A DNA stretch of 64,000 nucleotides from the NCBI GenBank assembly GCA_049594615.1, contig JBMYJR010000002.1:39028-103027 (forward strand), in the 5' to 3' direction. This document shows positions 1 to 26,858 of this stretch, one piece after another. The stretch comes from Flavobacteriales bacterium. Lineage in GTDB: Bacteria; Bacteroidota; Bacteroidia; Flavobacteriales_D; Sanyastnellaceae. Position 1 is the first letter of the stretch. The number at the start of each line of letters is the position of its first letter. The position numbers and the translations under genes are program-made. The notes under the pieces were generated by a model that saw only the letters and a list, made by a program, of their open reading frames with translations, was not told the origin of the DNA and did no database searches.

Positions 1-3000
1 GCTGTCCCCCCACATGGCCATGCCGATGTCGTGGGACAGGGCTTCGAGGGCCTTTACCTCTTCCATCCACGCCAGGTCTGCACCTGGGTAGGTTTGGATC
101 GCGGTTTTGATGTGGCGCAGGCGGCCGTCGAGCTCGCCTTGCTGGTTACCGCTGCCCAAAAGCTTGCGGCGGAGCTCTTGCACCTCGCGCTTGAAGGCAA
201 TGTTGGCCTCGGTTTGGCGGTCAAGCGATGAGTTCTCCAAAGCTTGCACTTCAAAGGGAGTGGCGTCTACCAGCTGCGTGAATACCCCGTTGTCGGCTTG
301 CCAGAGTTCAACCGTGTATTGGCCAGGTAGCGCGAGCGGTCCTTCATTCGGGTTGCTGTAGCGGCCCACCTCGCCTTGCGACAATTCGATGGGACTGGTG
401 GCTGGGTAACGCAGGTTCCAGGTGGCGCGTTGGACACCGGTAGAAGCTGGACGTTTCATCTTGCGCACCTCGCTGCCGTTGGCGTCTTTCACCACAAACA
501 GCAAGTAGGCTGACTCGTAAGTGTCCTCCAACACAAACTCCTCGTAGGTGGGGTAGTCGATGGCACGGCCAGCGTCCTTGGCTTCTTGCTCTTTCTCCTG
601 GCGCAAAGCCTTGGGCGATTTGGGCGATTCCTTGACGTAGTAGGTAAAGGTGGCGCCAAATTCAGGGTTAGGCGCTGCGTACATCGAAGCCCCTTGGCTG
701 CCCACTCCGCGCAGTCCAAGCGGGTTGGATTCCACGTAGGCGAGGGCCGTTTTGATCGGGAAGATGGCCGCGTCTTGGTCCATCAGGTCTTTGCTCAGTT
801 TGCGCAACGGGGTGTAGTCGTCCAGCACGTAAAAGCCGCGTCCGAAGGTGCCGAGCACCAAATCGTTCTCACGTTTTTGGATGGCCATGTCGCGCACGCA
901 AATGGTAGGTAGACCTGCGGTGAGTTGCACCCAATTTGCACCGCCGTCCACGCTGGTAAAGCAGCCAAACTCGGTGCCGGCAAACAGCAGGTTGGGCTCC
1001 ACGTGGTCTTCAGCCACAGCGTAAACCGTACCGCGTTCAGGCAAGTTGTTTTGCAACGAAGACCAAGTTTTACCCTTGTCCGAACTCTTGAGTAGGTACG
1101 GTTTGAAGTCACCCCGCTTGTGGTTGTTGAACGTGGCGTAAACCACGTTTTCGTCGTGTTGGGATGCCCACACCATGTTCACGTAGGTCAGCGAAGGCAC
1201 GCCCGGGAAGGACCCGATTTTGCGCCAGTTGTCGCCACCGTCTTCCGAAACCTGGATCAGCCCATCATCGGTACCCGCGTAAAGCAAGTTGGGGTTGACC
1301 GGAGATTGGTCAAAGGCCACGATGTTGCCGTATATGGTGGTGGATTTGTTCTTCATCACCACGTCCGGCGATTGCACTTCACCCATCACTTCCAGCTGGT
1401 TGCGATCGATTTGACGGGTGAGGTCTGGTGAGATGGCCTTCCAGCTGTTTCCGCGGTCGGTGGTCTTGAAGACTTTGTTGGCGCAGAAAAACAGGGTCTT
1501 GTGGTTGTGGGGCGAGATCAGCAGGGGAGAGTCCCAGTTCCAACGGAAGGCCGCTTCGCCTTTGCCAGGTTGGGGTTTGATGCCGATGCGCTCGCCCGAT
1601 TGCTTGTCAAAGCGGATCAGACCGCCGTATTGCCATTGGGCGTAAATGATGTTGGGGTCGGTGGGGTCGACTTGGGTTTCGTAGCCGTCGCCGCCCACGG
1701 TGATGTACCAGTCCGAGTTCAGGATGCCCGCGTTGTTGAGGGTGCGGGCAGGACCTGCTTGCGAGTTGTTGTCCTGGGTACCGCCAAACACGTTGTAGAA
1801 CGGCTCGTCGTAGTCGATGGACACCTTGTAGAATTGGGTGATGGGCAGGTTGGCCTTGAACTCCCAGGTGTGCGCATGGTCGTAGGTTTCGTACAAGCCG
1901 CCGTCGCAGCCCACAATCCAGTGGTCGGTGTCGTTGGGGTCAATCCAAATGCAGTGGTTGTCTACGTGTTTGTTGGTCTCACCAGTGGGTACGAACGATT
2001 GTCCGCCGTCCTCGGTGTGGTGCAGCCAAGTGGCCATGCTGAAGACTTTGTTTACGTCGTACGGGTCGCAAATGATCTCTTGGTAGTAATTGCCGGAGGT
2101 TTTGTAACCGCTTTGCTTCGACCACGTGCCCGCTTTGTTGGTAGAGCGGAAGAACCCGCCGGCGTCGCCTTCTGCTTCGATGATGGCGTACACCACGTTG
2201 GCATCTGCCGGAGATACTGCCAATCCAACGCGGCCCATTTTGCCTTGGGGCAGACCGCTCATGGCTTCCTGCCAGGTTTCGCCGCCGTCGGTGCTTTTGT
2301 AGACCGCGCTTTCGGGTCCACCGCCGATGTAGGTGAATACGTGACGACGACGTTGGTGGTAAGCGGCATACAGGATGTCGGGGTTGGTGGGGTCCATGAT
2401 GAGGTCTGCCGCACCGGTTTTGTCGGAAACGTTGTGGAGGTTCTCCCAGGTTTCGCCGCCGTCCGTCGAACGGTAAATGCCGCGGTCACCGCCGTCAGAC
2501 CAAAGCGGGCCGTAGGCAGCCACGTAAATGACATCCGAGTTGTCGGGGTGGACGATGATTTTGGAGATGTGTTCGGAGTCTTTCAACCCCATGTTCTTCC
2601 ACGAACGGCCAGCATCTACCGATTTGTAGACCCCGTCGCCATAGGCCACCGAGCGTTGGTTGTTGTTCTCTCCCGATCCTACCCAAAGGGTTGAAGATTG
2701 GTTCGGGTCCATGGTGATGCAGCCTACCGAGTAGGAGGCTTCGTTGTCGAAAATGGGTTGGAAACTGACCCCGTGGTTGGTGGTCTTCCATACGCCGCCG
2801 GAGGCCACGGCCACGTAATATTCGTTGTGGTTGTCGGGGTTAACTGCGAGGTCTACCACACGGCCCGAAGTCAAGGCAGGGCCAATGCAGCGGAAGTCCA
2901 ATCCGCTGATTTGTCCGGAGGTCAGCCAGTATTCATCGGAATCACCGCCCTTGTCTTTTTTGCGCTGCGCGTCGAGTTGGGCGGTGGTTAACACAGCAAT

Positions 3001-3030
3001 AAGGAGAAGGAAAAAATGCTTCAAATTCAT
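1..3030 (-). CDS. Sortilin/VPS10-type BNR (Asp-box) repeat beta-propeller protein, secreted; 3' end runs off the window
   Basis: Absent from the ORF track because it has no in-window stop. Manual reverse-complement translation from ATG 3030-3028 gives MNLKHFFLLLIAVLTTAQ (signal peptide). Repeated Asp-box motifs follow: SVDAGRSW, STDGGETW (x2), TEDGGQSF, TTDRGNSW, SEDGGDNW, SSDKGKTW, SVDGGANW. The track lists no minus-strand ORF in this frame across 3 kb, as expected for one open frame. The + strand ORF 1501..2694 is its V/G-rich shadow. Confidence 0.85.
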   Translation of the reverse strand, partial: MNLKHFFLLLIAVLTTAQLDAQRKKDKGGDSDEYWLTSGQISGLDFRCIGPALTSGRVVDLAVNPDNHNEYYVAVASGGVWKTTNHGVSFQPIFDNEASYSVGCITMDPNQSSTLWVGSGENNNQRSVAYGDGVYKSVDAGRSWKNMGLKDSEHISKIIVHPDNSDVIYVAAYGPLWSDGGDRGIYRSTDGGETWENLHNVSDKTGAADLIMDPTNPDILYAAYHQRRRHVFTYIGGGPESAVYKSTDGGETWQEAMSGLPQGKMGRVGLAVSPADANVVYAIIEAEGDAGGFFRSTNKAGTWSKQSGYKTSGNYYQEIICDPYDVNKVFSMATWLHHTEDGGQSFVPTGETNKHVDNHCIWIDPNDTDHWIVGCDGGLYETYDHAHTWEFKANLPITQFYKVSIDYDEPFYNVFGGTQDNNSQAGPARTLNNAGILNSDWYITVGGDGYETQVDPTDPNIIYAQWQYGGLIRFDKQSGERIGIKPQPGKGEAAFRWNWDSPLLISPHNHKTLFFCANKVFKTTDRGNSWKAISPDLTRQIDRNQLEVMGEVQSPDVVMKNKSTTIYGNIVAFDQSPVNPNLLYAGTDDGLIQVSEDGGDNWRKIGSFPGVPSLTYVNMVWASQHDENVVYATFNNHKRGDFKPYLLKSSDKGKTWSSLQNNLPERGTVYAVAEDHVEPNLLFAGTEFGCFTSVDGGANWVQLTAGLPTICVRDMAIQKRENDLVLGTFGRGFYVLDDYTPLRKLSKDLMDQDAAIFPIKTALAYVESNPLGLRGVGSQGASMYAAPNPEFGATFTYYVKESPKSPKALRQEKEQEAKDAGRAIDYPTYEEFVLEDTYESAYLLFVVKDANGSEVRKMKRPASTGVQRATWNLRYPATSPIELSQGEVGRYSNPNEGPLALPGQYTVELWQADNGVFTQLVDATPFEVQALENSSLDRQTEANIAFKREVQELRRKLLGSGNQQGELDGRLRHIKTAIQTYPGADLAWMEEVKALEALSHDIGMAMWGDS

Positions 3031-3177
3031 GGTTGAGGCGTTGGTGTCGTTGGTGTTTTGAGGTCAGGGACCGACAAGTTAATTGCTGAGCGCTTGCCAC
3101 GGTGACTATTGATAGAAAACAACATTTTCCATCCGGTAAGAAATCGGGTAAATCAGGTCGGCGAGCCGTAAGCGAGG

Positions 3178-4188
3178 TTAGCCCAACAGCGCACGCTCCA
3201 CTGCAGTCACGTCGGCGTCATTGATGTCCAAATGGGTCACAAAGCGCACCTTGTCCGGACCAAACGGCACCGCCAAGATGCCTTTGGTCTTGGCCGCTTC
3301 CACCCAAGCGGCTGAGCCTTGTTTGTCGGCCAACTCAAAGATGACAATGTTTGTTTCCACGGGCATAACACCGCTGACCTCTGGCAATTGCTGGACAATG
3401 GCGGCCAGTATGTGTGCACGGGCGTGGTCTTCGGCCATACGGTCCACGTGGTGGTCGAGGGCATGGAGTACCGCACCTGCGAGGTAGCCCGCTTGGCGCA
3501 TGCCGCCTCCAAAGGTCTTGCGCACGCGGTGGGCTTCGTGGATGAAGTCCTTGCTGCCAATCACCGCGCTCCCCACCGGACAGCCCAGGCCTTTGCTGAA
3601 GCACACCGAAATGGAATCATACGCACGGCCGTACTCCACAGGGTTGTGACCCTTGTGCACCAGCGCATTGAACAGTCGGGCACCATCCAAGTGCACGCCC
3701 AGGTTTTTGCTCCGCGCAGCGCTTGAAACCGCAATGATGTCGTCCAATTCATAGCAACAACCGCCGCCTTTGTTCACGGTGTCTTCCAAGCTCACCAGGC
3801 GGGTGCGCGCCAAGTGGGCATCGTCGCTGTTGATGTTGGCCAGCACGTCTGCAGCACTGAGTCGTCCGCGGTCGCCCTTCACCAAACGTACGCTGGCACC
3901 GGAGTTGCGGGCAATGCCGCCGCCTTCATACAGGTACACGTGCGATACGCCTGCACAAATCACCTCGTCGCCCGGACGGGTGTGCACTCGGATGGCAATC
4001 TGGTTGGTCATGGTGCCGCTGGGACAGAACAATGCGGCTTCGTGCCCAAAGTAGGCGGCAATGCGCTCTTGCAAGGCGTTGACGGTGGGATCTTCACCAA
4101 ATACGTCGTCGCCCACGGAGGCGTCAAACATGGCGTGGTGCATGGCCGCAGTAGGGCGGGTTACGGTGTCGCTGCGCAAGTCGATCAT
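3178..4188 (-). CDS. ltaE: Low-specificity L-threonine aldolase (PLP-dependent beta-eliminating lyase family)
   Basis: Family motifs [35 protein letters not shown] and the PLP-lysine region [14 protein letters not shown]. Start placed at the internal ATG 4188 (MIDLRSD). The track start at 4242 would overlap the divergent neighbour. Confidence 0.8.
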
Positions 4189-7333: not shown

Positions 7334-7897
7334 GTGAAGAATTACTACCGCATCCTGGATCTGGAGCCATCGGCGTCGGAGGCTGACATCAAACAAGCCT
7401 ACCGCCGATTGGCCAAACAATGGCACCCGGATGTCAATGGGGCCGCCCAAGCCCGGATGCGGTTCATTGAGGTCAACGAGGCGTATGAGTTCCTGATGGA
7501 TCCGCGCCGCCGTGACCTCTATTCACGCCGATCTACCATCGACGAGCGTGAACGCTTGCGCCGCGAAATGCTGTACAAGCAATGGGTAGCTCAGCAACAG
7601 CAACAGGCCCGCAACAAGGCCAAGCGCTACGCAGAGCGGCCTATGGATGAGTTCGTGAATTCGCCCATTTTCAAGGCGGCCATGCGGGTCAGCCATGTAT
7701 ACAATTACATCTTCATTGCCGTAGGGATCATCATCACCTTCGGCCCTGGAATCAAATACTTGATGATGACTGCCGAGGAGTTGGAAGAGCGACAGGTCAC
7801 CACAGCCTCTGTGGTGACACCCATGATTATGGGCGCGCTATTTACCTACGGCATTTATACCTTCCTGTTCAAATACAACCCTGACCGCGATGCGTAA
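7334..7897 (+). CDS. J-domain (DnaJ-like) membrane protein
   Basis: N-terminal J domain YYRILDLEPSASEADIKQAYRRLAKQWHPDVN with the HPD motif. Two C-terminal hydrophobic helices. GTG start. Confidence 0.75.
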   Translation: MKNYYRILDLEPSASEADIKQAYRRLAKQWHPDVNGAAQARMRFIEVNEAYEFLMDPRRRDLYSRRSTIDERERLRREMLYKQWVAQQQQQARNKAKRYAERPMDEFVNSPIFKAAMRVSHVYNYIFIAVGIIITFGPGIKYLMMTAEELEERQVTTASVVTPMIMGALFTYGIYTFLFKYNPDRDA

Positions 7898-10097
7898 CCT
7901 GCTGCTGCACTCTTGGGCCACCTTGCTTTTGGCCCTCACCGTTTCTTTCTCCGCCCACGCCACCGAGGGCATGTGGATTCCCACCTTGCTCAAAGCTGTG
8001 GAGGGCGACATGCAAACCTTCGGGCTCGAGCTCACCGCCGCGGACCTGTACAGCGTCAACCAAAGCAGCCTCAAGGACGCCATAGTGCTCTTTGGTGGCG
8101 GTTGCACTGCCTCGGTGATTTCCAAAGACGGCTTACTGTTGACCAACCATCACTGTGGCTACAGCCAAATCCAACAGCACAGCTCGGTGGAGCACGATTA
8201 CTTGAAGGACGGATTTTGGGCCGCCTCGCACAAAGACGAATTGCCCAACCCGGGGCTGACCGCCACCTTCATTGTGCGCATTGACGATGTCACGGGAGAA
8301 ATGAACAAAGGCATCACCGCGGGCATGAGTCCCGAGGCCGAACAAGAACTGTTTGAAGCCAACCGCAAGCGCATCGAAGCTGACGCCACCGAAGGCACAG
8401 CCTATGCTGCTCGCGTCAAGGCTTTCAACTATGGCAACAGCTATTTTGTAATCGTGACCCGCACTTTTGACGATGTGCGTCTTGTGGGGGCTCCGCCGTC
8501 TTCCATCGGCAAGTTTGGGGGAGATACCGACAACTGGGTGTGGCCGCGCCATACCGGTGACTTTTCGCTCTTCCGCATTTACGCCGGCGCCGACAACGGC
8601 CCTGCAGCGTATAACGAGGCCAACCGCCCGTGGCAACCCGAAGAGCACCTCAAGGTCAATATGGATGGCGTGCAGGAAGGCGACTTCACCATGGTCTACG
8701 GCTTCCCCGGACGCACTTCGGTGTACTTGACCAGTTATGCGGTGGACTACGTGATGAACCGCTCCAACCCCATGCGTATCGACATGCGTCGCAACAGCTT
8801 GGCGCTGATCGACGCAGCCATGCTGGCAAGCGATACGGTGCGCATCCAGTATGCCGCCAAACAGTCACGCATCTCCAACGCCTACAAAAAATGGCAAGGG
8901 CAGAACTTTGGCCTGGAGCGCAACCGTGCCCTGCAAAAAAAGGCCGACATCGAGGCTCGCATGCGTAAAGCAGGACCCCAATACGTAGACCTGTTAGACA
9001 AGTTTGAGCTGGTGTACGCCCAACTCAACGATGCCCAATTTGCCCGCGAATTGTTCATTGAATATTACTACTACGGCCCCGAAGTCTTGCGTTTTGCCGA
9101 GCGTTTCCGGCTGTTCGAACAATGGGAAGAACTGGCCGCCAAGGGCAAACTCGATCGCGCCACCGCTGATTTGGAAGCGAGCTTCGACGGCTACTTTGGC
9201 GACTACAACTACGCGTTGGACCAAGCGCTTTTTGCCAAACTCACCGAGCTCTACCTCGGCTACGCCGACCCCAGCACTGTACCGGCTGTCCTCCATACCT
9301 GGAAGGCCAAGAACGGTTCCTGGGAAGCTGCAGCCAAGGCCATCTATGCCAAGAGTATGCTTACCACCGAGGAGGATGTACAGGCCCTGATGGACATGTC
9401 GCCCAAAAAGGCCTTGAAGAAACTCATCAAGGATCCCCTCTACCTACTGATGAAGGCGGTGCGTAGCAGCTACTTTGAACACACCGCGACCAACTACAAC
9501 GCCTTAAAGGCTGAAGAAGAAAAACTGATGCAAACATGGGTGGTAGGCCTGGTTGATTATTTCCCAGACCGCACCTTCTGGGCAGACGCGAATAGCACCT
9601 TGCGCGTGACCTTTGGTAAGGCCGAGGGCAGCGCCCCCAAGGACGGTATGGAGTACCACTACCGCACCACGGCTGATGGCATCTTGCAGAAGTACATTCC
9701 TGGCCACGCCGATTTTGACCTGCCTACTGCCATGGTAGACCAACTCCGTGCCCGCGACTACGGGCAATGGGCCGGCGCCGACGGAGAGCTGCAAGTGTGT
9801 TTCACCGGTTCCAACCATACCACTGGCGGAAACTCGGGCAGCCCCACGCTGAACGGACGTGGTGAGCTCATTGGACTCAACTTCGATCGGAGCTGGGAAA
9901 GCACCATGAGCGACATCTTGTTTGATCCCGAGATCTGCCGCAACATCATGGTGGACATCCGCTATGTGATGTGGGTCGTGGACCGCTACGCTGGGGCCAC
10001 ACATTTGATTGAGGAGCTAACCCTGGTGCGCAACCCCAAGGAACGGCCCGAGATGGATGCTTTACCCGAGCTTAACACGCAGCTCGAACAAGACTAA
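7890..10097 (+). CDS. S46 family dipeptidyl-peptidase (DPP7/DPP11-like)
   Basis: Signal peptide followed by EGMWIPTLL. Catalytic His region LLLTNHHCG and catalytic Ser region GGNSGSPTLN. The ~735-aa length is typical of S46. Confidence 0.85.
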   Translation: MRNLLLHSWATLLLALTVSFSAHATEGMWIPTLLKAVEGDMQTFGLELTAADLYSVNQSSLKDAIVLFGGGCTASVISKDGLLLTNHHCGYSQIQQHSSVEHDYLKDGFWAASHKDELPNPGLTATFIVRIDDVTGEMNKGITAGMSPEAEQELFEANRKRIEADATEGTAYAARVKAFNYGNSYFVIVTRTFDDVRLVGAPPSSIGKFGGDTDNWVWPRHTGDFSLFRIYAGADNGPAAYNEANRPWQPEEHLKVNMDGVQEGDFTMVYGFPGRTSVYLTSYAVDYVMNRSNPMRIDMRRNSLALIDAAMLASDTVRIQYAAKQSRISNAYKKWQGQNFGLERNRALQKKADIEARMRKAGPQYVDLLDKFELVYAQLNDAQFARELFIEYYYYGPEVLRFAERFRLFEQWEELAAKGKLDRATADLEASFDGYFGDYNYALDQALFAKLTELYLGYADPSTVPAVLHTWKAKNGSWEAAAKAIYAKSMLTTEEDVQALMDMSPKKALKKLIKDPLYLLMKAVRSSYFEHTATNYNALKAEEEKLMQTWVVGLVDYFPDRTFWADANSTLRVTFGKAEGSAPKDGMEYHYRTTADGILQKYIPGHADFDLPTAMVDQLRARDYGQWAGADGELQVCFTGSNHTTGGNSGSPTLNGRGELIGLNFDRSWESTMSDILFDPEICRNIMVDIRYVMWVVDRYAGATHLIEELTLVRNPKERPEMDALPELNTQLEQD

Positions 10098-10812: not shown

Positions 10813-10891
10813 GCCCTCCAACATTGGTGCAGGGTAGGGTTGGATGGTAGCCTGTGATGGTCGTACCTTATGGGGCTTAAACCAACCTGCA

Positions 10892-13261
10892 ATGAATAGA
10901 GTACTAATGCTTTGCGCTTTGATGTGCGCGATGGTCACCACGGGCATAGCCCAGTGTGACGACGGCGAAATGCAAATCGAAATCATCATCAACCCCGACC
11001 AATACGACTGGGAAACCAGCTGGGATCTGGTCGGTGTTTCCACCACTTATGCCAGCGGATTAGCAGAAGGCGCCACCGTGTGCGTGCCTGAAGGAGACTG
11101 CATTTCTTTCCTGCTTCACGACTCTTACGGCGACGGTATTTTCAACGCGGACGCGTACACCATCAACATCGACGGCGAGCTTTTTGAAACCGGCACGTTC
11201 GACGGGCATGAGCACCAAGTGATCATCGATTGCTGGGAGGGAGGTGTGTGCGATACAGCAACTGCGATTGAACCGGGAGATTGGGTCGCCTCAAATGGCA
11301 ACGCTTGGTATACGTTTACCCCCGAGGTGAACGGCATGTATTTGGTGACAACCTGCGCCGAGGCCAACACGTGCGACACACGCATATGGATCTACGACTA
11401 CTGCAACATGTCCAACTTTGACAACAGCAATGAGGGATCCATCTATTTCGATGACAATGAAGGTGGGTGTGGAGAACAAGCCCAGTTCAATGCGTTGTTG
11501 GAAGGAGGGGTAACCTATTGGATTCGGATTGGGAGCACCGCGGGAGATTGCGGAGGTACCGATGTGTTCTGGAGCTTGAGCTACAATGGCTTGCCTGAAG
11601 GTTGCACGGATCCTGAAGCTTGCAATTACTCACCGATTGCTGATCTCGATGATGGCACTTGCGTGTATGAAGGTGATCCCTTGTGTGCAGCGCCAGACTT
11701 GATTATCGTCGAAGAAGCCATCGCCAACAGCATTTATGCCGAAGTGATGTTTGTAGACGAGAGCGATTGTTACATCGAAGAGGGCTGCCTAAACGGGTAC
11801 GGTGAGCGCGAGCTTATTCGATTTACGACACACATCAAGAACATTGGTGATGTAGATTACTACATCGGTTCTGCAGGGGATCCAGATGCTCCCGAGCAAT
11901 TCGAATGGGGTGACTGCCACAACCACTGGCACTACGAAGGATACGCAGCTTACATGCTCACCGATGCAGAAGACAATCTTCTTCCCATTGGACAAAAGAA
12001 TGGCTTTTGCGTGATGGACCTGGAGTGTTCAGACGGAGGGACTTTTCAATACGGTTGTAGCGTGATGGGTATTTCGGCGCACTGTGGCGACATATACGGA
12101 TCTGGTCTGAGCTGCCAATGGATCGACGTGACAGGCATTGCCGATGGGATCTACAAATTGGGTGTTATTGTGAACTGGGATCACACACCAGATGCCCTCG
12201 GACGTGAAGAAGCATCTTACGACAACAATTGGGGCCAAGTCTGCCTCGAATTGGACCGCACAAGCGGCGAATTAGAAGTGGTTGTCGTCGAAGAAAATTG
12301 TGAACCCTATGTGGATTGCAATGGGAATGTATGGGGCAATGCGACCGTGGACTGCAACGGTGAATGCGGAGGCTCAGCCCTTGCTGGAGATCTGGATGCC
12401 AATGGCGAACAGGAGTTGATCGATGCTGAAATGTACGTAGATCATATCCTGGGTGATGACATCGAAAGCACGCTATGTAACGACCTGAACGCGAGTGGCA
12501 GCATTACTGTCGCAGATGCCGCACTCTTGAGCCTGTGCAATGTGTACAATCTCGCTCACGAACACCCAGACAGTTCTGGGGTCCACAACAAATGCAATCT
12601 GCCTACCGATAACATTGTAAATGTCTTCGATACCACCACCTTCTCGATTGGCAATGTCAACTTCAATGAGAATTATTTGGATGTTCATGTGAAGAACCCC
12701 TACAACCGCATTGTAGGCTACCAGTTTTCGCTGACAGGGTTGGAGATCACCTCAGTGGTGTCCATTGCGGATCCGATAGGTTACCCGATTACTCCTTCAT
12801 TTTTGTTGGGTGGTCAAGAGGTTATCGGATTGAGTTACCAAGATTCTAGTTTGGCCAAGAGTCCAGAATTCCAGGCGTTGTGCCGTGTGTACTTTATCAA
12901 TCCTGAAGATGAGATTTGTATTGACCCCGTAGTGGATGTGGTGAATGAGGATTATCACACCACCTTGCATAATGTGGTTGATGGTTGTGTGATCAGCAGT
13001 TCTGTTGACGAGGTGGCACTCCAACGTGAAGTCATGTTCTCACCCAATCCCATGACCCAAGAGGCCACATTAAGCTTTTACAACCCCACACGCGAACAAT
13101 TCACCCTGGTCATCACCGATTTGGCCGGACGTGAGGTGATGCGTCAGACCGGTATCACCGGAACTTCTGTGCGCATTGATCGCGGCGATTTGGCGGTAGG
13201 AACGTACCAATACGTCTTGCAAGGACGTATACGTTACACCGGCAAATTCGGTGTGCGGTAA
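10892..13261 (+). CDS. Secreted multidomain lysyl oxidase (LOX)-like copper amine oxidase with dockerin-like pair, cohesin-like module and T9SS type A C-terminal sorting domain
   Basis: Signal peptide MNRVLMLCALMCAMVTTGIAQ. The LOX catalytic domain (nt ~11690-12253) aligns by eye to animal LOX: LIRFTTHIKNIGDVDY; FEWGDCHNHWHY, which carries the Cu His triad CH-xH-xH; GQKNGFCVMD, the LTQ lysine; CGDIYGSGLSCQWIDVTGIADGIYKL, the LTQ tyrosine; and SYDNNWGQVC. The C-terminus (FSPNPMTQEATLSF...GTYQYVLQG) is of Por_Secre_tail type. Confidence 0.85.
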   Translation: MNRVLMLCALMCAMVTTGIAQCDDGEMQIEIIINPDQYDWETSWDLVGVSTTYASGLAEGATVCVPEGDCISFLLHDSYGDGIFNADAYTINIDGELFETGTFDGHEHQVIIDCWEGGVCDTATAIEPGDWVASNGNAWYTFTPEVNGMYLVTTCAEANTCDTRIWIYDYCNMSNFDNSNEGSIYFDDNEGGCGEQAQFNALLEGGVTYWIRIGSTAGDCGGTDVFWSLSYNGLPEGCTDPEACNYSPIADLDDGTCVYEGDPLCAAPDLIIVEEAIANSIYAEVMFVDESDCYIEEGCLNGYGERELIRFTTHIKNIGDVDYYIGSAGDPDAPEQFEWGDCHNHWHYEGYAAYMLTDAEDNLLPIGQKNGFCVMDLECSDGGTFQYGCSVMGISAHCGDIYGSGLSCQWIDVTGIADGIYKLGVIVNWDHTPDALGREEASYDNNWGQVCLELDRTSGELEVVVVEENCEPYVDCNGNVWGNATVDCNGECGGSALAGDLDANGEQELIDAEMYVDHILGDDIESTLCNDLNASGSITVADAALLSLCNVYNLAHEHPDSSGVHNKCNLPTDNIVNVFDTTTFSIGNVNFNENYLDVHVKNPYNRIVGYQFSLTGLEITSVVSIADPIGYPITPSFLLGGQEVIGLSYQDSSLAKSPEFQALCRVYFINPEDEICIDPVVDVVNEDYHTTLHNVVDGCVISSSVDEVALQREVMFSPNPMTQEATLSFYNPTREQFTLVITDLAGREVMRQTGITGTSVRIDRGDLAVGTYQYVLQGRIRYTGKFGVR

Positions 13262-13401: not shown

Positions 13402-16400
13402 ATGCGAATATTTTTGAACCATGCGATCATCCTGCTTGCGCTCTTGCCCTTCTCGGGCGCTGCCCAAGTGGTGATCAACGAATTTACAGCTGCCAACTAC
13501 AACGACTGGGACGTGGGCGACGAACACGACTGGATTGAGTTGTACAATACCGGCACGGCTGCCTTTGATCTGTCCGGACACTTCCTGTCGGACAACATGG
13601 ACAACCCCGATAAATGGGAATTCCCTGCCGGTACCGTTTTGAACGCCGGTGAGCACGCAGTGGTGCTCTGCTCGGGCTTGGGCGACACCAACCCCTACGC
13701 TTTTGGATACATGAATTCCAACTTCCGCCTCCGCCAAACCGGCAACGAGGAAGTGGTGTTTACAGATCCTTCGGGGACCATTCTGGAGGTCTACGAGTTC
13801 AACGTGATCGGTGCGGTACAGACAGACATGTCTTGGGGCCGCAACGGCGATGGTGGTGCCGACTGGGTCATCTATCCAGACCCCACCCCGAATAACAGCA
13901 ATACTGGTCCTACTGGCACGGCGTTCGCCGCGAAGCCACAATTCAATTTGGAAGCTGGCTACTACCCAGCATCCATCGAAGTGGAAATCACAACCCCCGA
14001 AGCAGGGGCAGAGATCCGTTACACCTTGAACGGTGATGCACCCACCGCCGCGTCCACCCTGTATACCGGCCCCATCACGGTGGCCAATACAACGGTGATT
14101 CGCTCTGTAGCCATCCATCCGGATGACAATATCTTGGACAGTTTCAATGAAACCAACACCTACTTCATTGGTGCTGATAGTCACGTGATCCCAGTGGTCA
14201 GTGTTTCAGGGGATGATATCGGCGACGGTTCTTGGCCTTGGGGCGATGGTGAGGTGTGTGCCATCGAGTTCTTTGACGAAAACGGCGTGTTCATTGACGA
14301 CGCAGAAGGCGACTCCAACGAGCATGGCAACGATTCAAACGCCTACGACCAGCGCGGGTTTGATTACATCACCCGCGACCAGATGGGGTACGACCATGCC
14401 ATCCACCACAACCCGTTCCCGGGCTACACCGATCGCGACGAGTACCAGCGTTTCATCTTCAAGGCTGCGGCCAACGACAATTACAGTTTTGCCAACGGCG
14501 CGCACTGCCGTGACCTGTTCTGCCACATGATCTCCGAAGCCGGTGACATGAAGTTGGACGAACGCCGCGGCTCCTACTGCATTGTATACCTCAATGGAGA
14601 ATACTGGGGCGTGTACGACATCCGCGAAAAGGCTGATGACTTGGACTACACCCGCTACTACTACGACCAACCCCGCGGTTTTGTGGATTGGCTCAAGACT
14701 TGGGGCGGTACCTGGGAAGAGTACGGTACGGGCGATGACTGGTACGACTTGGTAGACTTCATTACCGGCAACGACATGACCGATGCGGCCAACTACGAGT
14801 ACGTGGAGTCGCAGCTCAACACCAAGAGTTTGATCGATTACTTCATCTTGAACACTTACGTGGTAAGTGCCGACTGGCTCAACTGGAACACCACTTGGTG
14901 GCGAGGACGTCATCCAGACGGCGACGCCAAGCGCTGGCGCTATGTCCTGTGGGACTTGGATGCCTCCTTTGGCCACTACGTGAACTACACCGGTATCCCT
15001 GACACTGGCCCCACCGCAGATCCATGTGACCCTGAAGGCATGGGCGACGTGGGCGGTCAAGGACACATCCCCGTACTCAACGCACTGCTGGACAACGAGG
15101 AATTCTACAGCACCTACCTCGCACGCTACGCATCGTACAGCAACACCATCTTCAGCTGTGAGTACATGAATGCGTTCTTGGACTCCATCACCGGCGTGAT
15201 CGCCCCCGAGATGCAACGCCAAGTGGACGTCTGGGGAGGCACCTACGCCGGCTGGGAGGATGCCATCCAAACCATGCGTGACTTCATCAACGACCGCTGT
15301 GCAGATGAGCTCATCGGCGGCATCGAAGATTGCTACGATGTTGAAGCAGTAACTGTGACTGTGATCATTGACGGCATCGGCCAAGTAGAAGTCGAAAACG
15401 CATTGATCAACTGGGACGAGTCTCCATGGGTGGGTACTTACTACACCGACATCGGCATTGACTTTGATGCCTTTGAGACTGCCGGTGTCTTTCTGGGTTG
15501 GGAAGTCTTGGAGGGGGACGTCACCATTGACGACCTGCTAGATCCAAGTTTCGAAACCACACTTACGGGGAACATCACGATTGTTGCTCACTTCGACACC
15601 AACATCGATCCGCAATTGGTCATGTACGACGTACAACCGGCAGGAGCAGGGGACATCCTTTTGGACGGGGCCTCAACAGCGCCACACGCCAACACCATCC
15701 TGACCGATGGTGGTACCCGTGTGATCACTGCTGTACCCAACGAGTGGTACGTGTTTGACGATTGGGACATCCTGAACGCCACCTTCATCCCTGGTGCTTC
15801 GGATACCACCGGAGCGGTCTTTATCAACCAGACCGATACCATCATCGCCAACTTTATAGAGATCCCTCACTTTGATGTGATGGTGGACGTTCAACCTGCA
15901 GGTGCAGGGTCCATTTCCATCGATGCGCTGGACTACCCAGACCTTCCTTGGGAAGGTACTTTGGCAGGTGAGGTAGACCTCCAGTTCGTCACCTCTCCTG
16001 TGGACGAGTGGAGTGAGTTCCAATACTGGATGGTGAACAACCACGTGGTGAGCCCAGACGAGTTCTCGGCCAACATGGTATTGAACCTGAACCAGACCGA
16101 TACCATTGTGGCGGTCTACGAAGTGACTCCACACAACGAAATCACGGTCATGATCGATCCCCCGCTTGCCGGCGCCGTGAAGCCCGGTGACGGCCCCATC
16201 GTTCAGGACAGCTGGACCGATGAGGTCGAAGCAGGCGTTAATCACTTGTATGTGGCTACGCCCATCGACTTCTGGCGATTTACCGGCTGGTCGGCCAGCA
16301 ACCACAGCCCTACGCCAGACAACCGAGAGCCTGTAGTAAACTTCAATTTCTCCCAGAACGACACCATCGTGGCGCACTTTGAAAAAGAAGAGTTCTCGTT

Positions 16401-16680
16401 CTACGTGCCCAACTCTTTCTCACCTGACAACGACGGTATCAATGAAGTGTGGCAACCGGTCAGCGGTGCCATCGATGCCGACAACTACGAGGTGTGGGTG
16501 TTTGGGCGCAACGGCGAAATCGTCTTCCACTCGACCAACCCCAACCAGGTTTGGGATGGCGGCCACACCGGCGGCGACCACTACGTACAGAACGAAACTT
16601 ACGCGTTCCGCATCGTGGTCAAACCGATACATGAATTGGAGCCGCGCACCATTACTGGTCACGTGACCTTGTTGCGTTAA
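13402..16680 (+). CDS. Lamin-tail-domain / CotH kinase-family protein with 4 tandem ~83-aa repeats and T9SS type B (gliding motility-associated) C-terminal domain
   Basis: LTD: VVINEFTAANYNDWDVGDEHDWIELYNTG...HFLSD. Chitobiase-C-like segment AGYYPASIEVEITTPEAGAEIRYTLNGDAPT. CotH core: YLNGEYWGVYDIREK, DYFILNTYVVSADWLNWNTTWW, RWRYVLWDLDASFGH. The C-terminus FYVPNSFSPDNDGINEVWQP...ETYAFRIVV is of type B CTD. Confidence 0.8.
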   Translation: MRIFLNHAIILLALLPFSGAAQVVINEFTAANYNDWDVGDEHDWIELYNTGTAAFDLSGHFLSDNMDNPDKWEFPAGTVLNAGEHAVVLCSGLGDTNPYAFGYMNSNFRLRQTGNEEVVFTDPSGTILEVYEFNVIGAVQTDMSWGRNGDGGADWVIYPDPTPNNSNTGPTGTAFAAKPQFNLEAGYYPASIEVEITTPEAGAEIRYTLNGDAPTAASTLYTGPITVANTTVIRSVAIHPDDNILDSFNETNTYFIGADSHVIPVVSVSGDDIGDGSWPWGDGEVCAIEFFDENGVFIDDAEGDSNEHGNDSNAYDQRGFDYITRDQMGYDHAIHHNPFPGYTDRDEYQRFIFKAAANDNYSFANGAHCRDLFCHMISEAGDMKLDERRGSYCIVYLNGEYWGVYDIREKADDLDYTRYYYDQPRGFVDWLKTWGGTWEEYGTGDDWYDLVDFITGNDMTDAANYEYVESQLNTKSLIDYFILNTYVVSADWLNWNTTWWRGRHPDGDAKRWRYVLWDLDASFGHYVNYTGIPDTGPTADPCDPEGMGDVGGQGHIPVLNALLDNEEFYSTYLARYASYSNTIFSCEYMNAFLDSITGVIAPEMQRQVDVWGGTYAGWEDAIQTMRDFINDRCADELIGGIEDCYDVEAVTVTVIIDGIGQVEVENALINWDESPWVGTYYTDIGIDFDAFETAGVFLGWEVLEGDVTIDDLLDPSFETTLTGNITIVAHFDTNIDPQLVMYDVQPAGAGDILLDGASTAPHANTILTDGGTRVITAVPNEWYVFDDWDILNATFIPGASDTTGAVFINQTDTIIANFIEIPHFDVMVDVQPAGAGSISIDALDYPDLPWEGTLAGEVDLQFVTSPVDEWSEFQYWMVNNHVVSPDEFSANMVLNLNQTDTIVAVYEVTPHNEITVMIDPPLAGAVKPGDGPIVQDSWTDEVEAGVNHLYVATPIDFWRFTGWSASNHSPTPDNREPVVNFNFSQNDTIVAHFEKEEFSFYVPNSFSPDNDGINEVWQPVSGAIDADNYEVWVFGRNGEIVFHSTNPNQVWDGGHTGGDHYVQNETYAFRIVVKPIHELEPRTITGHVTLLR
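15343..16377 (+). repeat. Four tandem ~83-aa domain repeats inside the CotH protein
   Basis: Each unit has V(T/M)V..D(V)QPAGAG...W.(F/Y).(G)W......(T)I(V/I)A.F, for example VMYDVQPAGAGDILLDG...TDTIIANF and VMVDVQPAGAGSISID...TDTIVAVY. This resembles divergent InlB B-repeat-type domains. Confidence 0.7.
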
Positions 16681-19906: not shown

Positions 19907-21433
19907 GTGAAGTACCCTGTTTTTCTGGCCGCTTTACTTGTGGCCTGCACCGCATGGTCGCAAGCTGACTTGCAATCGCCTCCGGAGGTGGTGTTTTCTT
20001 CTTTCATTACCGGACTGAACGACCCGGTGCGACTGGTTCCTGCTCCCGATGGGCGCCTCTTCATCCTGGAGCAATCCCAAGGTGACGTTGAAATCTACCA
20101 GCCCGACGGCACCTACATCGGCACCTTCCTGGACGTTTCTGGACTGATTTCAACCGGTAGCGAACGCGGCCTGTTGGGTATGGCTTTTCACCCGGATTAT
20201 ACTGCCAACGGCAAGTTTTACTTGAACTACACCGATGTGGGCGGAGATACCGTTGTTTCCGAATGGAGCGTTTCATCCAACCAGAATGTCGCAGATCCTG
20301 CAAGCGAGGTGGTGCTGCTGAACATTGTCCAGGATTTCTCCAACCACAACGGCGGGCACATTGCATTTGGTCCTGACGGCCACCTGTACATCGGCACGGG
20401 GGACGGCGGCTCTGGCGGTGACCCGTTGGCCCGAGCTCAAGACGGCCAAAGCCTGCTCGGCAAGATGTTGCGTATCGCGGTGGCCGGCGACGGTACGTAT
20501 ACCATCCCTGCGGACAACCCTTTCCTTGGTGCACCCGGCGTACTGGATGAAATCTGGGCCATTGGCCTGCGCAACCCTTGGAACTTCAGTTTTGACCCGT
20601 TGACTGGAGACCTCTGGAACGGTGATGTGGGCCAAGACCAATTTGAAGAAATCAGCGTGCAGTCTGGCGCCAGCACCGGTGGAGAAAACTACGGATGGCG
20701 GTGTTGGGAAGGGCTGGTGACGTTCAACACTTCAGAGTGTAGCACCTTGCCGCATCACCCTCCGGTCATCACCCACGCCCACACCGGATTTACCGGTTGG
20801 TGCAGTATCACCGGTGGATTCGTGTACCGCGGGACTGAATACCCGGGCATGGAAGGCTACTACCTCTACACCGATTACTGTCTGGGCGAAATACACGCCC
20901 TCAAAGACGACGGCGCAGGAGGCTACAACGCCTACACGGTCAACAGCGATGGCAACTTCGGCTACGTGCATTTGGCCACGGGCACCGACGGTACAGCCTA
21001 CATCGTGGATATCGGCGGCCAAGTACTCAAGGTGGAAGACGCCTGCAACACCTTGCCTGAGATTTCTTTGGACGTTGCGGGCACCTTGGAAGTCAACCTT
21101 GCTGGCGCGACTACTTACACGTGGTACCAAGACGGCTCTGCGCTTACAGGCTCGGATGCCGAAACGTGGACTCCTGCCACGAGCGGCACATACAGCTGTT
21201 TGGTAGATGTAGATGGATGCGTACGCTTGAGCAACGCCCAAGAGGTGGCTGTGCAAGTGGGGGTGCCCGGATGCACCTACGCCAACGCGACCAACTACGA
21301 AGCCAATGCTTCGGTGGATGATGGTTCGTGCCTGTTCACGGACTCCTGTGACGCAGACCTCAACGCTGATGGCACCATCGGCACCGCCGACATCCTAGAC
21401 ATTCTGGGCGCATTTGGAACAGACTGTCCTTAG
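19907..21433 (+). CDS. Secreted PQQ-dependent sugar dehydrogenase (soluble glucose/sorbosone dehydrogenase family) with Ig-like domain, one Cys-rich repeat and one dockerin-like C-terminal segment
   Basis: Signal peptide [19 protein letters not shown] (GTG start). GSDH blocks [43 protein letters not shown]. Tail: [23 protein letters not shown]...[28 protein letters not shown]. Confidence 0.8.
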
Positions 21434-26300: not shown

Positions 26301-26858
26301 GAGGGTGTTGGGATCGTTGGGGTCAATCGCCACATCCGAAACGCCAATGGAACCGAGTTGGTCGGTGTTGACCACCTCCCAGTTGGTTCCAGCGTTGTTT
26401 GAGCGCCAGAGGCCTCCTGCTGGAGCACATGCGTAGTAACGCAAGGTGTTGGACGGATCCACGCGCACCATATTTACGCGGCCAGCGCCTCCGCCACCCC
26501 CTGGAACCGAGGTGTTGCCAAAGTAGGTCCACACGCCCGACTGCGAGAGGCGGACCTCACTTCCACGGTTGCGTTGCACAGCTTGGTACACCGCATCTGG
26601 GGCTACCATGTCGCCGCTCGGGGCAAGGCGGGGCTCCCAAAAGTGCTCCCAGCGCTTGTATTGTTTGTAGCCTTGGCCACGTTCGATTTCGCGTCCTTCC
26701 CAATAGTCGTTGAATTCGGTTTGGACTTCGTAAAGGTTGACGTTAGGATCTTGGATCCGTTCGGCCCAGACCTTGTCTTGGCCAAACAGGGAAACCGAAA
26801 GGCCCATTGCAATTGCAATGAGCCCTCCGTTCCCGAGAATGCAGGAAATGTATTTCAC
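23346..26858 (-). CDS. Secreted BNR/Asp-box (sortilin-like) multi-propeller protein with CARDB-like domain, DSYGDG module, 5 Cys-rich repeats and paired dockerin-like C-terminus
   Basis: Signal peptide. Asp-box motifs STDNGVTW, TTDGGANW, SNDNGVTW, SQDAGLTW, SSDGGATW, STDAGGSW, TLDGGTTW, SGDSGDTW. C-terminal cassette described under findings. Starts 11 nt after the upstream metalloprotease gene on the same strand. Confidence 0.8.
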   Translation of the reverse strand: MKYISCILGNGGLIAIAMGLSVSLFGQDKVWAERIQDPNVNLYEVQTEFNDYWEGREIERGQGYKQYKRWEHFWEPRLAPSGDMVAPDAVYQAVQRNRGSEVRLSQSGVWTYFGNTSVPGGGGGAGRVNMVRVDPSNTLRYYACAPAGGLWRSNNAGTNWEVVNTDQLGSIGVSDVAIDPNDPNTLYIATGDGDAGDTYALGVLKSTDNGVTWNTTGLNWTVQQVRRCNRIIMDPSDSDVLLVATSNGVHRTTDGGANWAQTLSGNFKDVQFKSGDANTVFAVGNGDDFFFSNDNGVTWTQSTTGLPTSGISRLALTVGSSDPNTLYILAGRSSDQGFEGYYRSQDAGLTWTQMASAATINLLGWNVNGTDSGGQAWYDLATACDPTNEDVVYVGGVNTWKSSDGGATWNIVGHWYGASGTPYVHADIHGMYFIPGTSTLLIGCDGGVFRTLNGGTSFSDLSSNLEIAQIYRLGLSAQTQNIVFSGWQDNGSNLKIGNNWTRPIGGDGFESIVDHTDESIMYGTIYYGRIYKSTNYGSSFSTILNSDGSGANEGGAWLTPYVMSENDHNKLIVAKKSLHVSTDAGGSWTSYAMPTTGNSNALAVAESDENVIFVGKGGNLYRTLDGGTTWTTLSGLSGSSITYIAIDPTDATRLWVSFSGFGSGAKVYYSGDSGDTWTNYSDGLPAIPCNTIVYQKDTDDGLYVGTDAGVYYRENSFAAWQPYTDGLPNTVVSELEIHYGSNTIVAATYGRGLWHAPLYVIPADDAAIVTVDAPNTTQCDPDVEGIVTIGNFGANTLTAATIEYGLNGVYDQSFAWTGSLATGETEQVNLPAVTGTPGTATFVVRIVIASDQNNTNDSKESIYEIGEGEIETTITIETDCWGGETTWELRDASTAVIASGGPLASNSVIATNVCLTDACYEFEIFDSYGDGLNGTAYGCAIDGDYYLTQADGTVLVTMPVVDFDFNALHPFCTVPATVLGCTDGSACNFDPAATSDDGSCEYTSCAGCTNPVACNYDATATIDDGSCDLVSCYGCTDSGACNYDATATNDDGSCEFTSCAGCTDSGACNYDATATIDDSSCEYATCAGCTDSGACNYDAGATLDDGTCEYASCACPMDLNNDGFIGTGDVLAIIGDFGCAGVCSGDVNDDLSTDTSDLLTMLAMFGTACP
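23517..23921 (-). repeat. Five in-frame tandem 81-bp coding repeats (27-aa Cys-rich unit)
   Basis: The protein reads GCTDGSACNFDPAATSDDGSCEYTSCA / GCTNPVACNYDATATIDDGSCDLVSCY / GCTDSGACNYDATATNDDGSCEFTSCA / GCTDSGACNYDATATIDDSSCEYATCA / GCTDSGACNYDAGATLDDGTCEYASCA. Similarity between units is also visible at the DNA level. Confidence 0.9.

Follow-up and report, generated by a model that had tools for sequence, protein, structure and literature searches.

A Bacteroidota lysyl oxidase family carries a constant pair of a dockerin-like module and a predicted cohesin-fold sandwich

The stretch of Flavobacteriales DNA analysed here (64,000 nucleotides, hereafter the window) encodes an exported lysyl oxidase family protein in which a dockerin-like module is followed by a beta-sandwich with the predicted fold of a cohesin. 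This Doc-Coh pair is a cassette specific to lysyl oxidase (LOX), found almost exclusively behind the LOX domain, and it is duplicated only as a whole. We favour, at a probability of about one half, the reading that both modules form a fixed, Ca2+-stabilised and oxidase-specific didomain, which would act as a rigid, cis-packed stalk or accessory unit on a surface lysyl oxidase.

Architecture of the window protein

The open reading frame (10844..13261, + strand) codes for 805 amino acids. Since the relative P0002, which is 99% identical to the window protein, has 789 amino acids, the start was placed at M17 (nt 10892). The protein consists, in this order, of a signal peptide, beta-rich N-terminal domains, lysyl oxidase, the dockerin-like module, the cohesin-fold sandwich and a type A tail of the type IX secretion system (T9SS). 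The following features were assigned:

10892..13261, + strand: whole gene, coding for an exported protein of the lysyl oxidase family with 789 aa when counted from M17 of the 805-aa ORF (ORF, 99%-identical relative, Pfam and NCBIfam matches)
10892..10954, + strand: putative signal peptide, MNRVLMLCALMCAMVTTGIAQ (read from the sequence; helix 2-16 in the full-length model; same start in relatives)
10955..11653, + strand: pair of beta-rich N-terminal domains, also rich in Cys (DSYGDG motif; W-Y-x-F-T sandwich), followed by the CTDPEACNYSPIADLDDGTCVY Cys unit (strands 26-238 in the full-length model; family-wide conservation)
11693..12247, + strand: catalytic domain of the lysyl oxidase, residues 284-468 of the ORF (PF01186, LOXL2 alignment, Foldseek)
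12299..12373, + strand: four-Cys segment NCEPYVDCNG...DCNGECGG ahead of the dockerin (cysteines invariant in family alignments)
12383..12559, + strand: dockerin-like module, ORF residues 514-572, built of two Ca2+ loop-helix repeats (Pfam, family profile, conservation, model helices)
12536..12595, + strand: loop C565...C584, CNVYNLAHEHPDSSGVHNKC, rich in conserved His (Cys conservation, co-loss, His conservation)
12599..13003, + strand: predicted cohesin-fold nine-strand beta-sandwich, ORF residues 586-720 (AF2 model, Foldseek, Cys pair C193/C216)
13040..13258, + strand: T9SS type A C-terminal sorting domain (TIGR04183, PF18962, fold match)

The residues that follow M17 resemble a signal peptide, and the N-terminal beta-rich domains matched no Pfam family. 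The host protein is a lysyl oxidase, which was absent from the initial annotation. PF01186 matched the window protein with an E-value of 2.4e-27 (96.4 bits, cut-off 20.4) and human LOXL2 (5ze3) was matched by sequence at E 5.7e-18. The alignment with 5ze3 keeps the WxDCHxHxH copper motif, along with K in GxK..FC and Y in D(I/M)Y. By comparison with LOXL2, we take the aligned K and Y residues to form the LTQ cofactor, and the His motif to provide the copper ligands. Judged by its sequence, the domain is a catalytic domain of the lysyl oxidase family (PF01186), with both the copper His motif and the LTQ Lys and Tyr. In addition, the domain gave a Foldseek match at 3.7e-12 when the full-length model was used.

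Lysyl oxidases with the same catalytic domain are known from bacteria and archaea and have already been reported in Bacteroidetes (Grau-Bove et al. 2015, PMC4448552; Haloterrigena LOX, PMC6452851). The prokaryotic enzymes in the survey of Grau-Bove et al. 2015 are mostly single-domain proteins, and dockerin and cohesin are unmentioned there (PMC4448552). The window family shares the catalytic domain with these bacterial and archaeal enzymes, whereas it has a constant four-part cassette. Lysyl oxidases are widespread in bacteria, but our literature search found no study on what they do in the cell.

At the C-terminus, TIGR04183 scored 24.5 bits on the window protein and 28 bits in the genome search (cut-off 23), and PF18962 scored 24.4 bits, which is under its cut-off of 27. 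The fold of the tail matched the mirolase CTD (8qb1) with a TM-score of 0.76 and an rmsd of 1.9 in the full-length model. The tail is therefore of T9SS type A, in line with the earlier assignment of the protein as T9SS-anchored. The source genome contains 121 TIGR04183 matches.

The dockerin-like module and the His-rich loop

The initial annotation had placed a pair of dockerin-like Ca2+ loop-helix segments at ORF residues 514-568, and its coordinates and sequences were exact (nt 12383 onward, reading GDLDANGEQELIDAEMYVDHILGDD...CNDLNASGSITVADAALLSLCNVY). A type I dockerin has two segments of ~22 residues, each with a 12-residue EF-hand-like loop (D/N at positions 1, 3 and 5, an O-ligand at 9 and D at 12) and a helix. 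The window module shows this loop-helix pattern, with loop 1 being DLDANGEQELID and loop 2 DLNASGSITVAD; in the didomain model, helices 26-38 and 57-72 come after the Ca loops. Among 184 non-redundant units, position 1 is D in 99-100%, position 3 D/N in 91-97%, position 5 D/N in 94-97%, position 9 acidic or hydroxyl in 87-98% and position 12 D in 100%. The window protein deviates in loop 2, with S at position 5 in place of the D found in 95% of the units.

When the window protein was searched alone, PF00404 stayed below threshold (13.1-16.2 bits, cut-off 22.9; E 0.11-0.013). The same model matched 32 of 42 relatives with a best E-value of 3.3e-7, and scores above the cut-off were obtained for P0122 (46.6 bits) and P0124 (25.9 bits). 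Moreover, a family profile searched against the PDB found the CelS dockerin 1daq at E 6e-4, followed by further dockerins. At the level of the family, these profiles support homology to dockerins and bear out the Ca2+ loop-helix pair of the initial annotation.

The dockerin-like module is joined to the sandwich by a loop bracketed by two cysteines. In alignment numbering, C66 marks where helix 2 of the dockerin ends, and C85 lies seven residues ahead of the first strand of the sandwich. Each is present in 99% of the units, and both are gone in the one unit that lacks them. From this single co-loss event, a C565-C584 disulfide probably closes the loop, which would leave hardly any effective linker. 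H73, H75 and H82 are conserved in 62-77% of the units, and the pLDDT of the His-rich loop is low (~60) in the didomain model. A second pair, C193/C216 within the Coh module, is jointly lost in three units and never singly. When we searched for an inter-domain disulfide by Cys co-variation, only this Coh-internal pair and the Doc-to-linker pair C66/C85 were found; the semi-conserved C181 (32% of units) had no co-varying partner.

The predicted cohesin fold

The AlphaFold2 model of residues 500-732 reached a pLDDT of 91 and a pTM of 0.86, with 178 of the 233 residues at pLDDT>=90. It consists of two helices followed by a nine-strand sandwich, the strands of which have a pLDDT >95. When this didomain model was compared to the PDB with Foldseek, 16 of the 18 matches at E<=1e-3 were cohesins. 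CaCohA2 (6kgf_A) was the top match (E 1.3e-5, TM 0.58), and OlpC (4dh2_C), CipA (1aoh), 2ccl, the A. fulgidus cohesin 2xdh and the C. perfringens modules 2jh2, 2vo8 and 2w1n were also found. The TM-scores of the cohesins were 0.48-0.59 per target, and 0.35 on 2w1n, a 228-residue cohesin+FN3 construct. The two non-cohesins among the 18 were a domain of the CLIPPER adhesin (9ifr) and a CBM2 (6qfs_B), while the type II cohesin 3ghp_A was found at rank 19 (E 1.2e-3). An independent model, of the full-length protein, again gave cohesin matches (6kgd_A, TM 0.60). Fold comparison across the cohesin types, a check proposed in the initial annotation, thus matched types I and II and ranked cohesins ahead of CBMs.

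A search with the cohesin profile PF00963, suggested for the same purpose, found no match in the window protein, its sub-segments or the 42 relatives, and none genome-wide at E<=10. NCBIfam gave no cohesin match for the window protein either, and the sequence profile of the didomain searched against the PDB found only dockerins and no cohesin. When an HMM of 19 Pfam-positive Bacteroidota cohesins was run on the 268 collected proteins, E-values were >=0.07. With hhalign, the alignment to the Bacteroidota cohesin profile (P=0.009-0.015) was co-linear over 107-123 columns, and its score was above all 30 column shuffles. However, 4 of 30 block shuffles matched or exceeded it, because most of the score came from a single GYQF strand block. 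As the profile-profile score fails this control, we do not claim sequence homology of the sandwich to cohesins. The cohesin-like sandwich that had been proposed at residues 596-716 is therefore upheld by the predicted fold, but not by the sequence: the predicted nine-strand jelly roll can be superimposed on solved cohesins, at moderate TM and with the CBM2 fold next in rank.

The place of CBM2 structures directly after the cohesins (6qfs, 3.4e-4; 3ndy, 1.8e-3) raises the question of whether the sandwich belongs to the wider cohesin/CBM2/CBM3 fold class and binds a ligand. The ligand would be a carbohydrate or the protein substrate, to which the sandwich would direct the oxidase, with the dockerin-like part as no more than a Ca2+-stabilised connector. 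Since cohesin homology is not established by sequence, and since restriction to one enzyme family also fits a substrate-targeting domain, we considered this explanation, but judge it quite improbable. Type I, type II, clostridial non-cellulosomal and archaeal cohesins all outrank the CBMs, no Pfam CBM family matched the window protein or the 42 relatives, and a ligand-binding role would give no reason why a dockerin always accompanies the sandwich.

Distribution and behaviour of the Doc-Coh unit

The order Nterm-LOX-Doc-Coh was present in 205 of the 268 collected proteins, and most of the others were fragments. Only three long proteins (P0156, P0224 and P0255) carried weak cohesin-like arrays without LOX or dockerin. 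Duplication occurred only as Doc+Coh: P0122 consists of LOX, 6x(Doc-Coh) and a T9SS tail, and P0124 has two copies of the unit. The C-terminal appendages differ (T9SS tail; MAM; PKD with a dockerin-like tail) and the cassette stays constant. Within the order, the module was found in 65 of 201 genomes with one or two copies each, which is the pattern of an enzyme family and not of a scaffold system. In the source genome there are exactly two cohesin-fold modules, one of them T9SS-anchored. The other LOX-Doc-Coh protein, a paralogue on contig C25, carries a C-terminal dockerin-like tail and no T9SS tag.

Tails of this kind (C..DLNGDG.IGT.DLL..LG.FGT.C) occur 29-39 times in the source genome on secreted proteins, four of them in the window, and weakly resemble the GC-type dockerin NF041540 of NCBIfam. 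Their number and this likeness, together with the presence of a T9SS-anchored module and of a paralogue that could dock on the window protein through its own tail, would fit a cellulosome-like display in which the cohesin-fold module of the oxidase is the surface receptor for the Cys-bracketed tails. However, modules and tails co-occurred poorly across the 201 genomes. Tails are abundant in nearly all genomes of family f1 (counts are lower bounds) and almost absent elsewhere, whereas 33 genomes that do not belong to f1 carry the module, and 32 of these have no tail or only one weak match (e.g. G004, G005, G015, G017, G020 and G021). Conversely, G088, G135, G143, G147 and G181 carry tails (6-39 matches each) without the module, and the module was never found on a scaffold without LOX. 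On the basis of this co-occurrence, we rate a role as tail receptor as highly unlikely, and the many dockerin-like C-terminal tails of the source genome should not be read as clients of the cohesin-fold module.

Arrangement of the two modules

The pTM of 0.86 obtained for the two modules suggests that they are placed as one rigid body, as we estimate from the domain sizes that a pTM of ~0.6 would be expected if they were placed independently. Contact between the dockerin and the sandwich is predicted from this pTM. Mean-field direct-coupling analysis of 204 units for Doc-Coh contacts gave only indel artefacts as top pairs. The full-length AF2 model was also used to see whether the didomain is fixed to the LOX domain; its overall pTM of 0.54 indicates no fixed arrangement of the protein as a whole. 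This value and the dockerin pLDDT of 69-80 in the same model speak against cis packing.

Under the reading that we favour, a copper lysyl oxidase would be exported via the type IX secretion system and retained on the cell surface, with a fixed two-module accessory unit that follows the catalytic domain and precedes the secretion tag. The dockerin homologue would be joined to the cohesin-fold sandwich via the short, disulfide-closed His-rich loop. We infer that both modules pack in the same chain and yield one rigid body stabilised by Ca2+ and disulfides. This didomain might serve as a stalk that keeps the enzyme off the membrane, or alternatively offer an accessory surface that assists in folding or in handling the substrate; a plain stalk role would leave the restriction to lysyl oxidases unexplained. 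In the course of evolution, the unit would have been lengthened by whole-unit copying.

A conserved, Ca-competent dockerin beside a cohesin fold would also be expected of a pair that binds in trans. In this case, the dockerin of one oxidase would bind the cohesin-fold module of another. The resulting dimers or head-to-tail chains would depend on Ca2+, and oxidases with tandem Doc-Coh arrays would build multivalent networks. Both modules are present, the Ca ligands of the dockerin are conserved and the predicted fold matches dockerin-binding cohesins. Non-cellulosomal proteins that combine the two modules are known, too: the Foldseek matches include the A. fulgidus cohesin 2xdh, whose parent protein has a dockerin as well. 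Restriction to one enzyme family would fit a self-recognition device as well as it fits a cis unit. However, the relative placement of the modules is confident in the monomer model (pTM 0.86), and the short, probably disulfide-stapled linker argues against a free, swinging dockerin. We therefore consider self-association in trans possible but unlikely. Equally tentative is the more specific idea of a self-complementary cohesin-dockerin pair that a Gram-negative lineage joined to a lysyl oxidase, and that has diverged past sequence models and mediates Ca2+-dependent surface arrays or the docking of the paralogue without T9SS tag. The initial annotation had suggested that a protein with both modules could self-polymerise or act as an adaptor scaffold. 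Neither proposal is supported by the unit duplication, the predicted rigidity or the tail-independent distribution; self-polymerisation is possible but unlikely, and a function as adaptor for the tails is highly unlikely.

If the modules pack in cis, they would be a natural case in which a cohesin-dockerin interface serves as a structural joint within one molecule. If they bind in trans, they would constitute a new kind of surface enzyme assembly, and a self-complementary pair would imply a lattice of a cross-linking enzyme on the outer membrane, in which cellulosome-type logic is used for protein cross-linking and not for polysaccharide breakdown. The didomain provides an expressible handle, with which Ca2+/EDTA-dependent assembly can be assayed.

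Relation to known systems

In our literature search, which left much subscription literature out of reach, we found no report of LOX with dockerin or cohesin, of T9SS with cohesin-dockerin or of an intramolecular cohesin-dockerin pair. The Bacteroidota LOX family carries a constant four-part cassette and not a bare catalytic domain. The last two parts are a dockerin and a predicted cohesin-shaped module, the latter of which is missed by current family models. The known range of cohesin-dockerin architectures is thereby extended to a pair that lies side by side, duplicates as a unit and occurs in a T9SS cargo of a Gram-negative bacterium.

With the cellulosomal type I pairs, such as C. thermocellum CipA cohesin–Cel48S/CelS dockerin and C. 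acetobutylicum CaCohA2-Doc0917 (6kgf), the window protein shares the two Ca2+ loop-helix repeats and the predicted nine-strand sandwich. In contrast to these pairs, the modules are adjacent in one chain, with Doc ahead of Coh, and form a disulfide-rich unit. They belong to a T9SS cargo protein of a Gram-negative bacterium, and the enzyme that they accompany is a lysyl oxidase and not a glycoside hydrolase. PF00963 is without a match in the window family, and we found no evidence for a scaffoldin system.

The A. fulgidus cohesin 2xdh and the cohesin-like modules of C. perfringens GH84C/GH33 (2jh2, 2vo8 and 2w1n) have in common with the window protein that a cohesin-fold module is present on an enzyme unrelated to cellulose breakdown. 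The Pfam cohesin model recognises those modules, and some of them have been shown to bind in trans, whereas the window sequence lies beyond the reach of Pfam. Moreover, the window pair is fixed, adjacent, duplicated as a unit and tied to one enzyme family.

Other T9SS cargo proteins have Ig-like stalk domains ahead of the CTD, e.g. the IgSF domain of gingipains, in which a beta-sandwich directly precedes the CTD. The position of the window sandwich and its proposed stalk role would be analogous to these. However, its predicted fold is a cohesin-type jelly roll with a dockerin ahead of it, and it stays with LOX when the T9SS tail is replaced.

The window protein is an exported lysyl oxidase

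The dockerin-like and cohesin-like segments lie entirely within one open reading frame:

10844-13261, forward strand: host open reading frame, 805 aa, containing the whole dockerin-like and cohesin-like region

The length of the relative P0002 (789 aa, 99% identity to the window protein) points to a translation start at M17 (nt 10892), with a typical signal peptide right after it; residue numbers follow the 805-aa frame. The protein had not been recognised as a lysyl oxidase (LOX) in the initial annotation. This identity was found with the Pfam domain PF01186 at residues 284-468 (E 2.4e-27, 96 bits). The catalytic domain aligns with human LOXL2 (5ze3, E 5.7e-18); the alignment retains the copper His motif together with Lys and Tyr of the LTQ cofactor. 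We take these residues to have the roles of their aligned counterparts in LOXL2. The T9SS tail gave a weak match in Pfam and passed the NCBIfam T9SS type A model (24.5 bits, cut-off 23). The window protein is a secreted bacterial lysyl oxidase and is probably active. Its relatives are publicly annotated as 'lysyl oxidase family protein' or 'T9SS type A sorting domain-containing protein', with PF01186 and PF18962 as the only precomputed domains. The oxidase gene is preceded by a gene for an S46 dipeptidyl-peptidase (7890-10097, forward strand) and followed by one for a 1092-aa lamin-tail/CotH kinase-like protein with a type B T9SS (CHU_C) tail (13402-16680, forward strand).

Lysyl oxidases have been reported before in Bacteroidetes, and prokaryotic LOX were described as mostly single-domain in a survey that mentions neither dockerin nor cohesin (PMC4448552). 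In contrast, the family of the window protein combines beta-rich N-terminal domains, LOX, a dockerin-like module and a cohesin-fold sandwich. No report of LOX together with dockerin or cohesin was found in the literature searched, a coverage that leaves out much subscription literature.

The dockerin-like module is homologous to dockerins

In the window protein alone, Dockerin_1 matched residues 514-562 below threshold (13-16 bits versus 22.9). We gathered 135 relatives of residues 500-730 at 40-99% identity from Flavobacteriales and Saprospiraceae-type Bacteroidota, nearly all of them containing LOX and most a T9SS tail, and aligned 42 diverse segments. Dockerin_1 matched 32 of these 42 (best E 3.3e-7), and the metagenomic relative P0122 scored 46.6 bits. 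When the profile of the alignment was compared with solved structures, the CelS dockerin was matched (1daq/2mte, E 6e-4), followed by eleven more dockerin entries and one unrelated chain. The dockerin-like pair proposed in the initial annotation was borne out by these sequence comparisons, which established dockerin homology at the family level.

Among 184 non-redundant units, both 12-residue loops carry D at position 1 (99-100%), D/N at positions 3 (91-97%) and 5 (94-97%), an acidic or hydroxyl residue at position 9 (87-98%) and D at position 12 (100%), as would be expected for a working EF-hand-type loop. The window protein departs from this pattern in loop 2, where Ser replaces the Asp that 95% of the units have at position 5. 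Dockerins outside cellulosomes have also been reported in rumen Bacteroidetes (PMC6487960).

The adjacent sandwich has a predicted cohesin fold

The following segment had been read as cohesin-like, with a PF00963 search proposed as a check. No PF00963 match was found in the window protein, its sub-segments or any of the 42 relatives, nor in the genome at E≤10. With hhalign, 19 Pfam-positive cohesins from other Bacteroidota aligned co-linearly over 107-123 columns (P 0.009-0.015), placing the GYQF strand on the strand-3 motif of cohesins. The score of 20.0 lay above all 30 column shuffles and was matched or exceeded by 4 of 30 shuffles of 8-column blocks, so that the sequence signal is essentially one strand motif. 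Homology of the sandwich to cohesins was thus not demonstrated by these searches.

AlphaFold2, run on the 42-segment alignment, predicts two helices followed by nine strands for residues 500-732 (mean pLDDT 91, pTM 0.86). In a Foldseek search of the PDB, 16 of the 18 matches at E≤1e-3 were cohesins, among them type I and clostridial non-cellulosomal cohesins and an archaeal one (top match 6kgf_A, 1.3e-5; target-normalised TM 0.48-0.59 across cohesins). The other two were a CLIPPER adhesin domain (9ifr) and a CBM2 (6qfs_B), and the type II cohesin 3ghp_A ranked 19th (E 1.2e-3). A separate full-length model (pLDDT 81.6) reproduced the cohesin matches and matched LOXL2 (3.7e-12), the C. perfringens cohesin+FN3 construct 2w1n (8.6e-8) and 6kgd_A (TM 0.60), while its T9SS tail matched the mirolase T9SS CTD (TM 0.76). 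On these models the sandwich is a cohesin-fold module of the cohesin/CBM2-3 fold class, nearest to cohesins; the earlier assignment holds for the predicted fold and not for PF00963 membership.

Cohesin and dockerin modules outside cellulosomes are already known, for instance in the A. fulgidus and C. perfringens proteins that Foldseek retrieved. Of 301 Bacteroidota genomes sampled, 83 encode PF00963 cohesins scoring above cut-off, frequently as several modules in one protein; most belong to other classes, and such cohesins are rare in the window's own order.

Dockerin and sandwich behave as one unit

The 135-relative search and an exhaustive profile search (330 representatives, E≤1e-3) yielded 268 module-bearing proteins. 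The order N-terminal domains, LOX, dockerin and sandwich was found in 205 of them; nearly all others are short fragments, and only three are long proteins with weak cohesin-like arrays lacking LOX or dockerin. Wherever the module is duplicated, its dockerin is copied along with it, as in P0122 (1936 aa; LOX, six dockerin-sandwich units and a T9SS tail) and P0124 (two units). The pTM of 0.86 for the two-module model compares with about 0.6 estimated from domain sizes for independently placed modules. Architecture, joint duplication and predicted rigidity argue that dockerin and sandwich form one unit. P0124 is also metagenomic, as are two of the three long proteins, P0156 (2929 aa) and P0255 (1071 aa). 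These two contain 9 and 4 weaker cohesin-like repeats, respectively, and a T9SS tail without LOX or dockerin, and look like adhesin or scaffoldin-type arrays.

The two modules are joined by a conserved loop of low model confidence:

12536-12595, forward strand: His-rich linker from dockerin to sandwich, (A)HxHPDSSGxH(D/N)(H/K)C, with two 99%-conserved Cys

One Cys ends dockerin helix 2 and the other lies just before the sandwich; both are lost in the single unit lacking them. This joint conservation and loss tentatively suggests a disulfide closing the 20-residue linker. A second Cys pair, within the sandwich, shows three losses, each of both residues. As part of a copper enzyme, the His-rich loop could bind metal.

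The best-supported explanation, to which we assign a probability of about 0.5, is an oxidase-specific didomain, stabilised by Ca2+ and disulfides, that would serve the oxidase as a single structural or accessory unit ahead of the T9SS tag. The function proposed in the initial annotation found partial support. Self-assembly of the oxidase in trans, as suggested there, is retained as a rather unlikely alternative. That the sandwich binds a ligand or substrate, with the dockerin as a connector, appears doubtful.

The module occurs exactly twice in the genome (2.96 Mb, 99% complete), in the window gene and in a paralogue:

847-3372 of locus L010 (contig C25), reverse strand: N-terminal domains, LOX, dockerin and sandwich, then a PKD-like domain

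The paralogue continues with a MopE-like Cys/Asp motif, ends in a dockerin-like tail of two repeats and has no T9SS tag. Both paralogues are also present in a genome of the same genus (G175).

C-terminal dockerin-like tails occur independently of the module

About 30 proteins of the genome end in a Cys-bracketed tail, C..DLNGDG.IGT.DLL..LG.FGT.C (at least 39 profile matches). It is a single or double EF-hand/dockerin-like element that begins 23-25 residues ahead of the stop. Four lie in the window:

19907-21433, forward strand: tail-bearing protein
23346-26858, reverse strand: tail-bearing protein
26870-29971, reverse strand: tail-bearing protein
about 60041-60136, reverse strand: tail

Across the genome, such proteins lie on contigs C2, C5, C6, C10, C11, C13, C25, C26, C29, C31, C32, C36, C39, C49, C52, C58, C64, C79, C82 and C101. 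The tails weakly resemble the GC-type dockerin model NF041540, scoring under its cut-off, and may serve as a C-terminal tag for anchoring or sorting that is specific to the family.

This abundance suggested that such tails might dock on a receptor displayed by the T9SS-anchored oxidase, in line with the scaffold proposed in the initial annotation. Co-occurrence over 201 genomes of the order was poor. Sixty-five genomes, spread over many families and 39 of 83 genera, carry the module at 1-2 copies each. Tail matches saturated the search for almost all genomes of the window's family; elsewhere there are hardly any. Outside this family, 32 of the 33 module-bearing genomes have no tails or only one weak match. 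The module is absent from five genomes that do have tails (6-39 matches each). Neither element needs the other, which makes a receptor function very unlikely.

The Cys unit GCT(D/Y)xxAxNYxxxAxxDDGSC is found once in the oxidase (about 11600-11670) and in one to several copies ahead of many tails. The genome also has 121 T9SS type A sorting domain matches, about 115 of them above cut-off, a very large T9SS secretome alongside the tail-bearing set.
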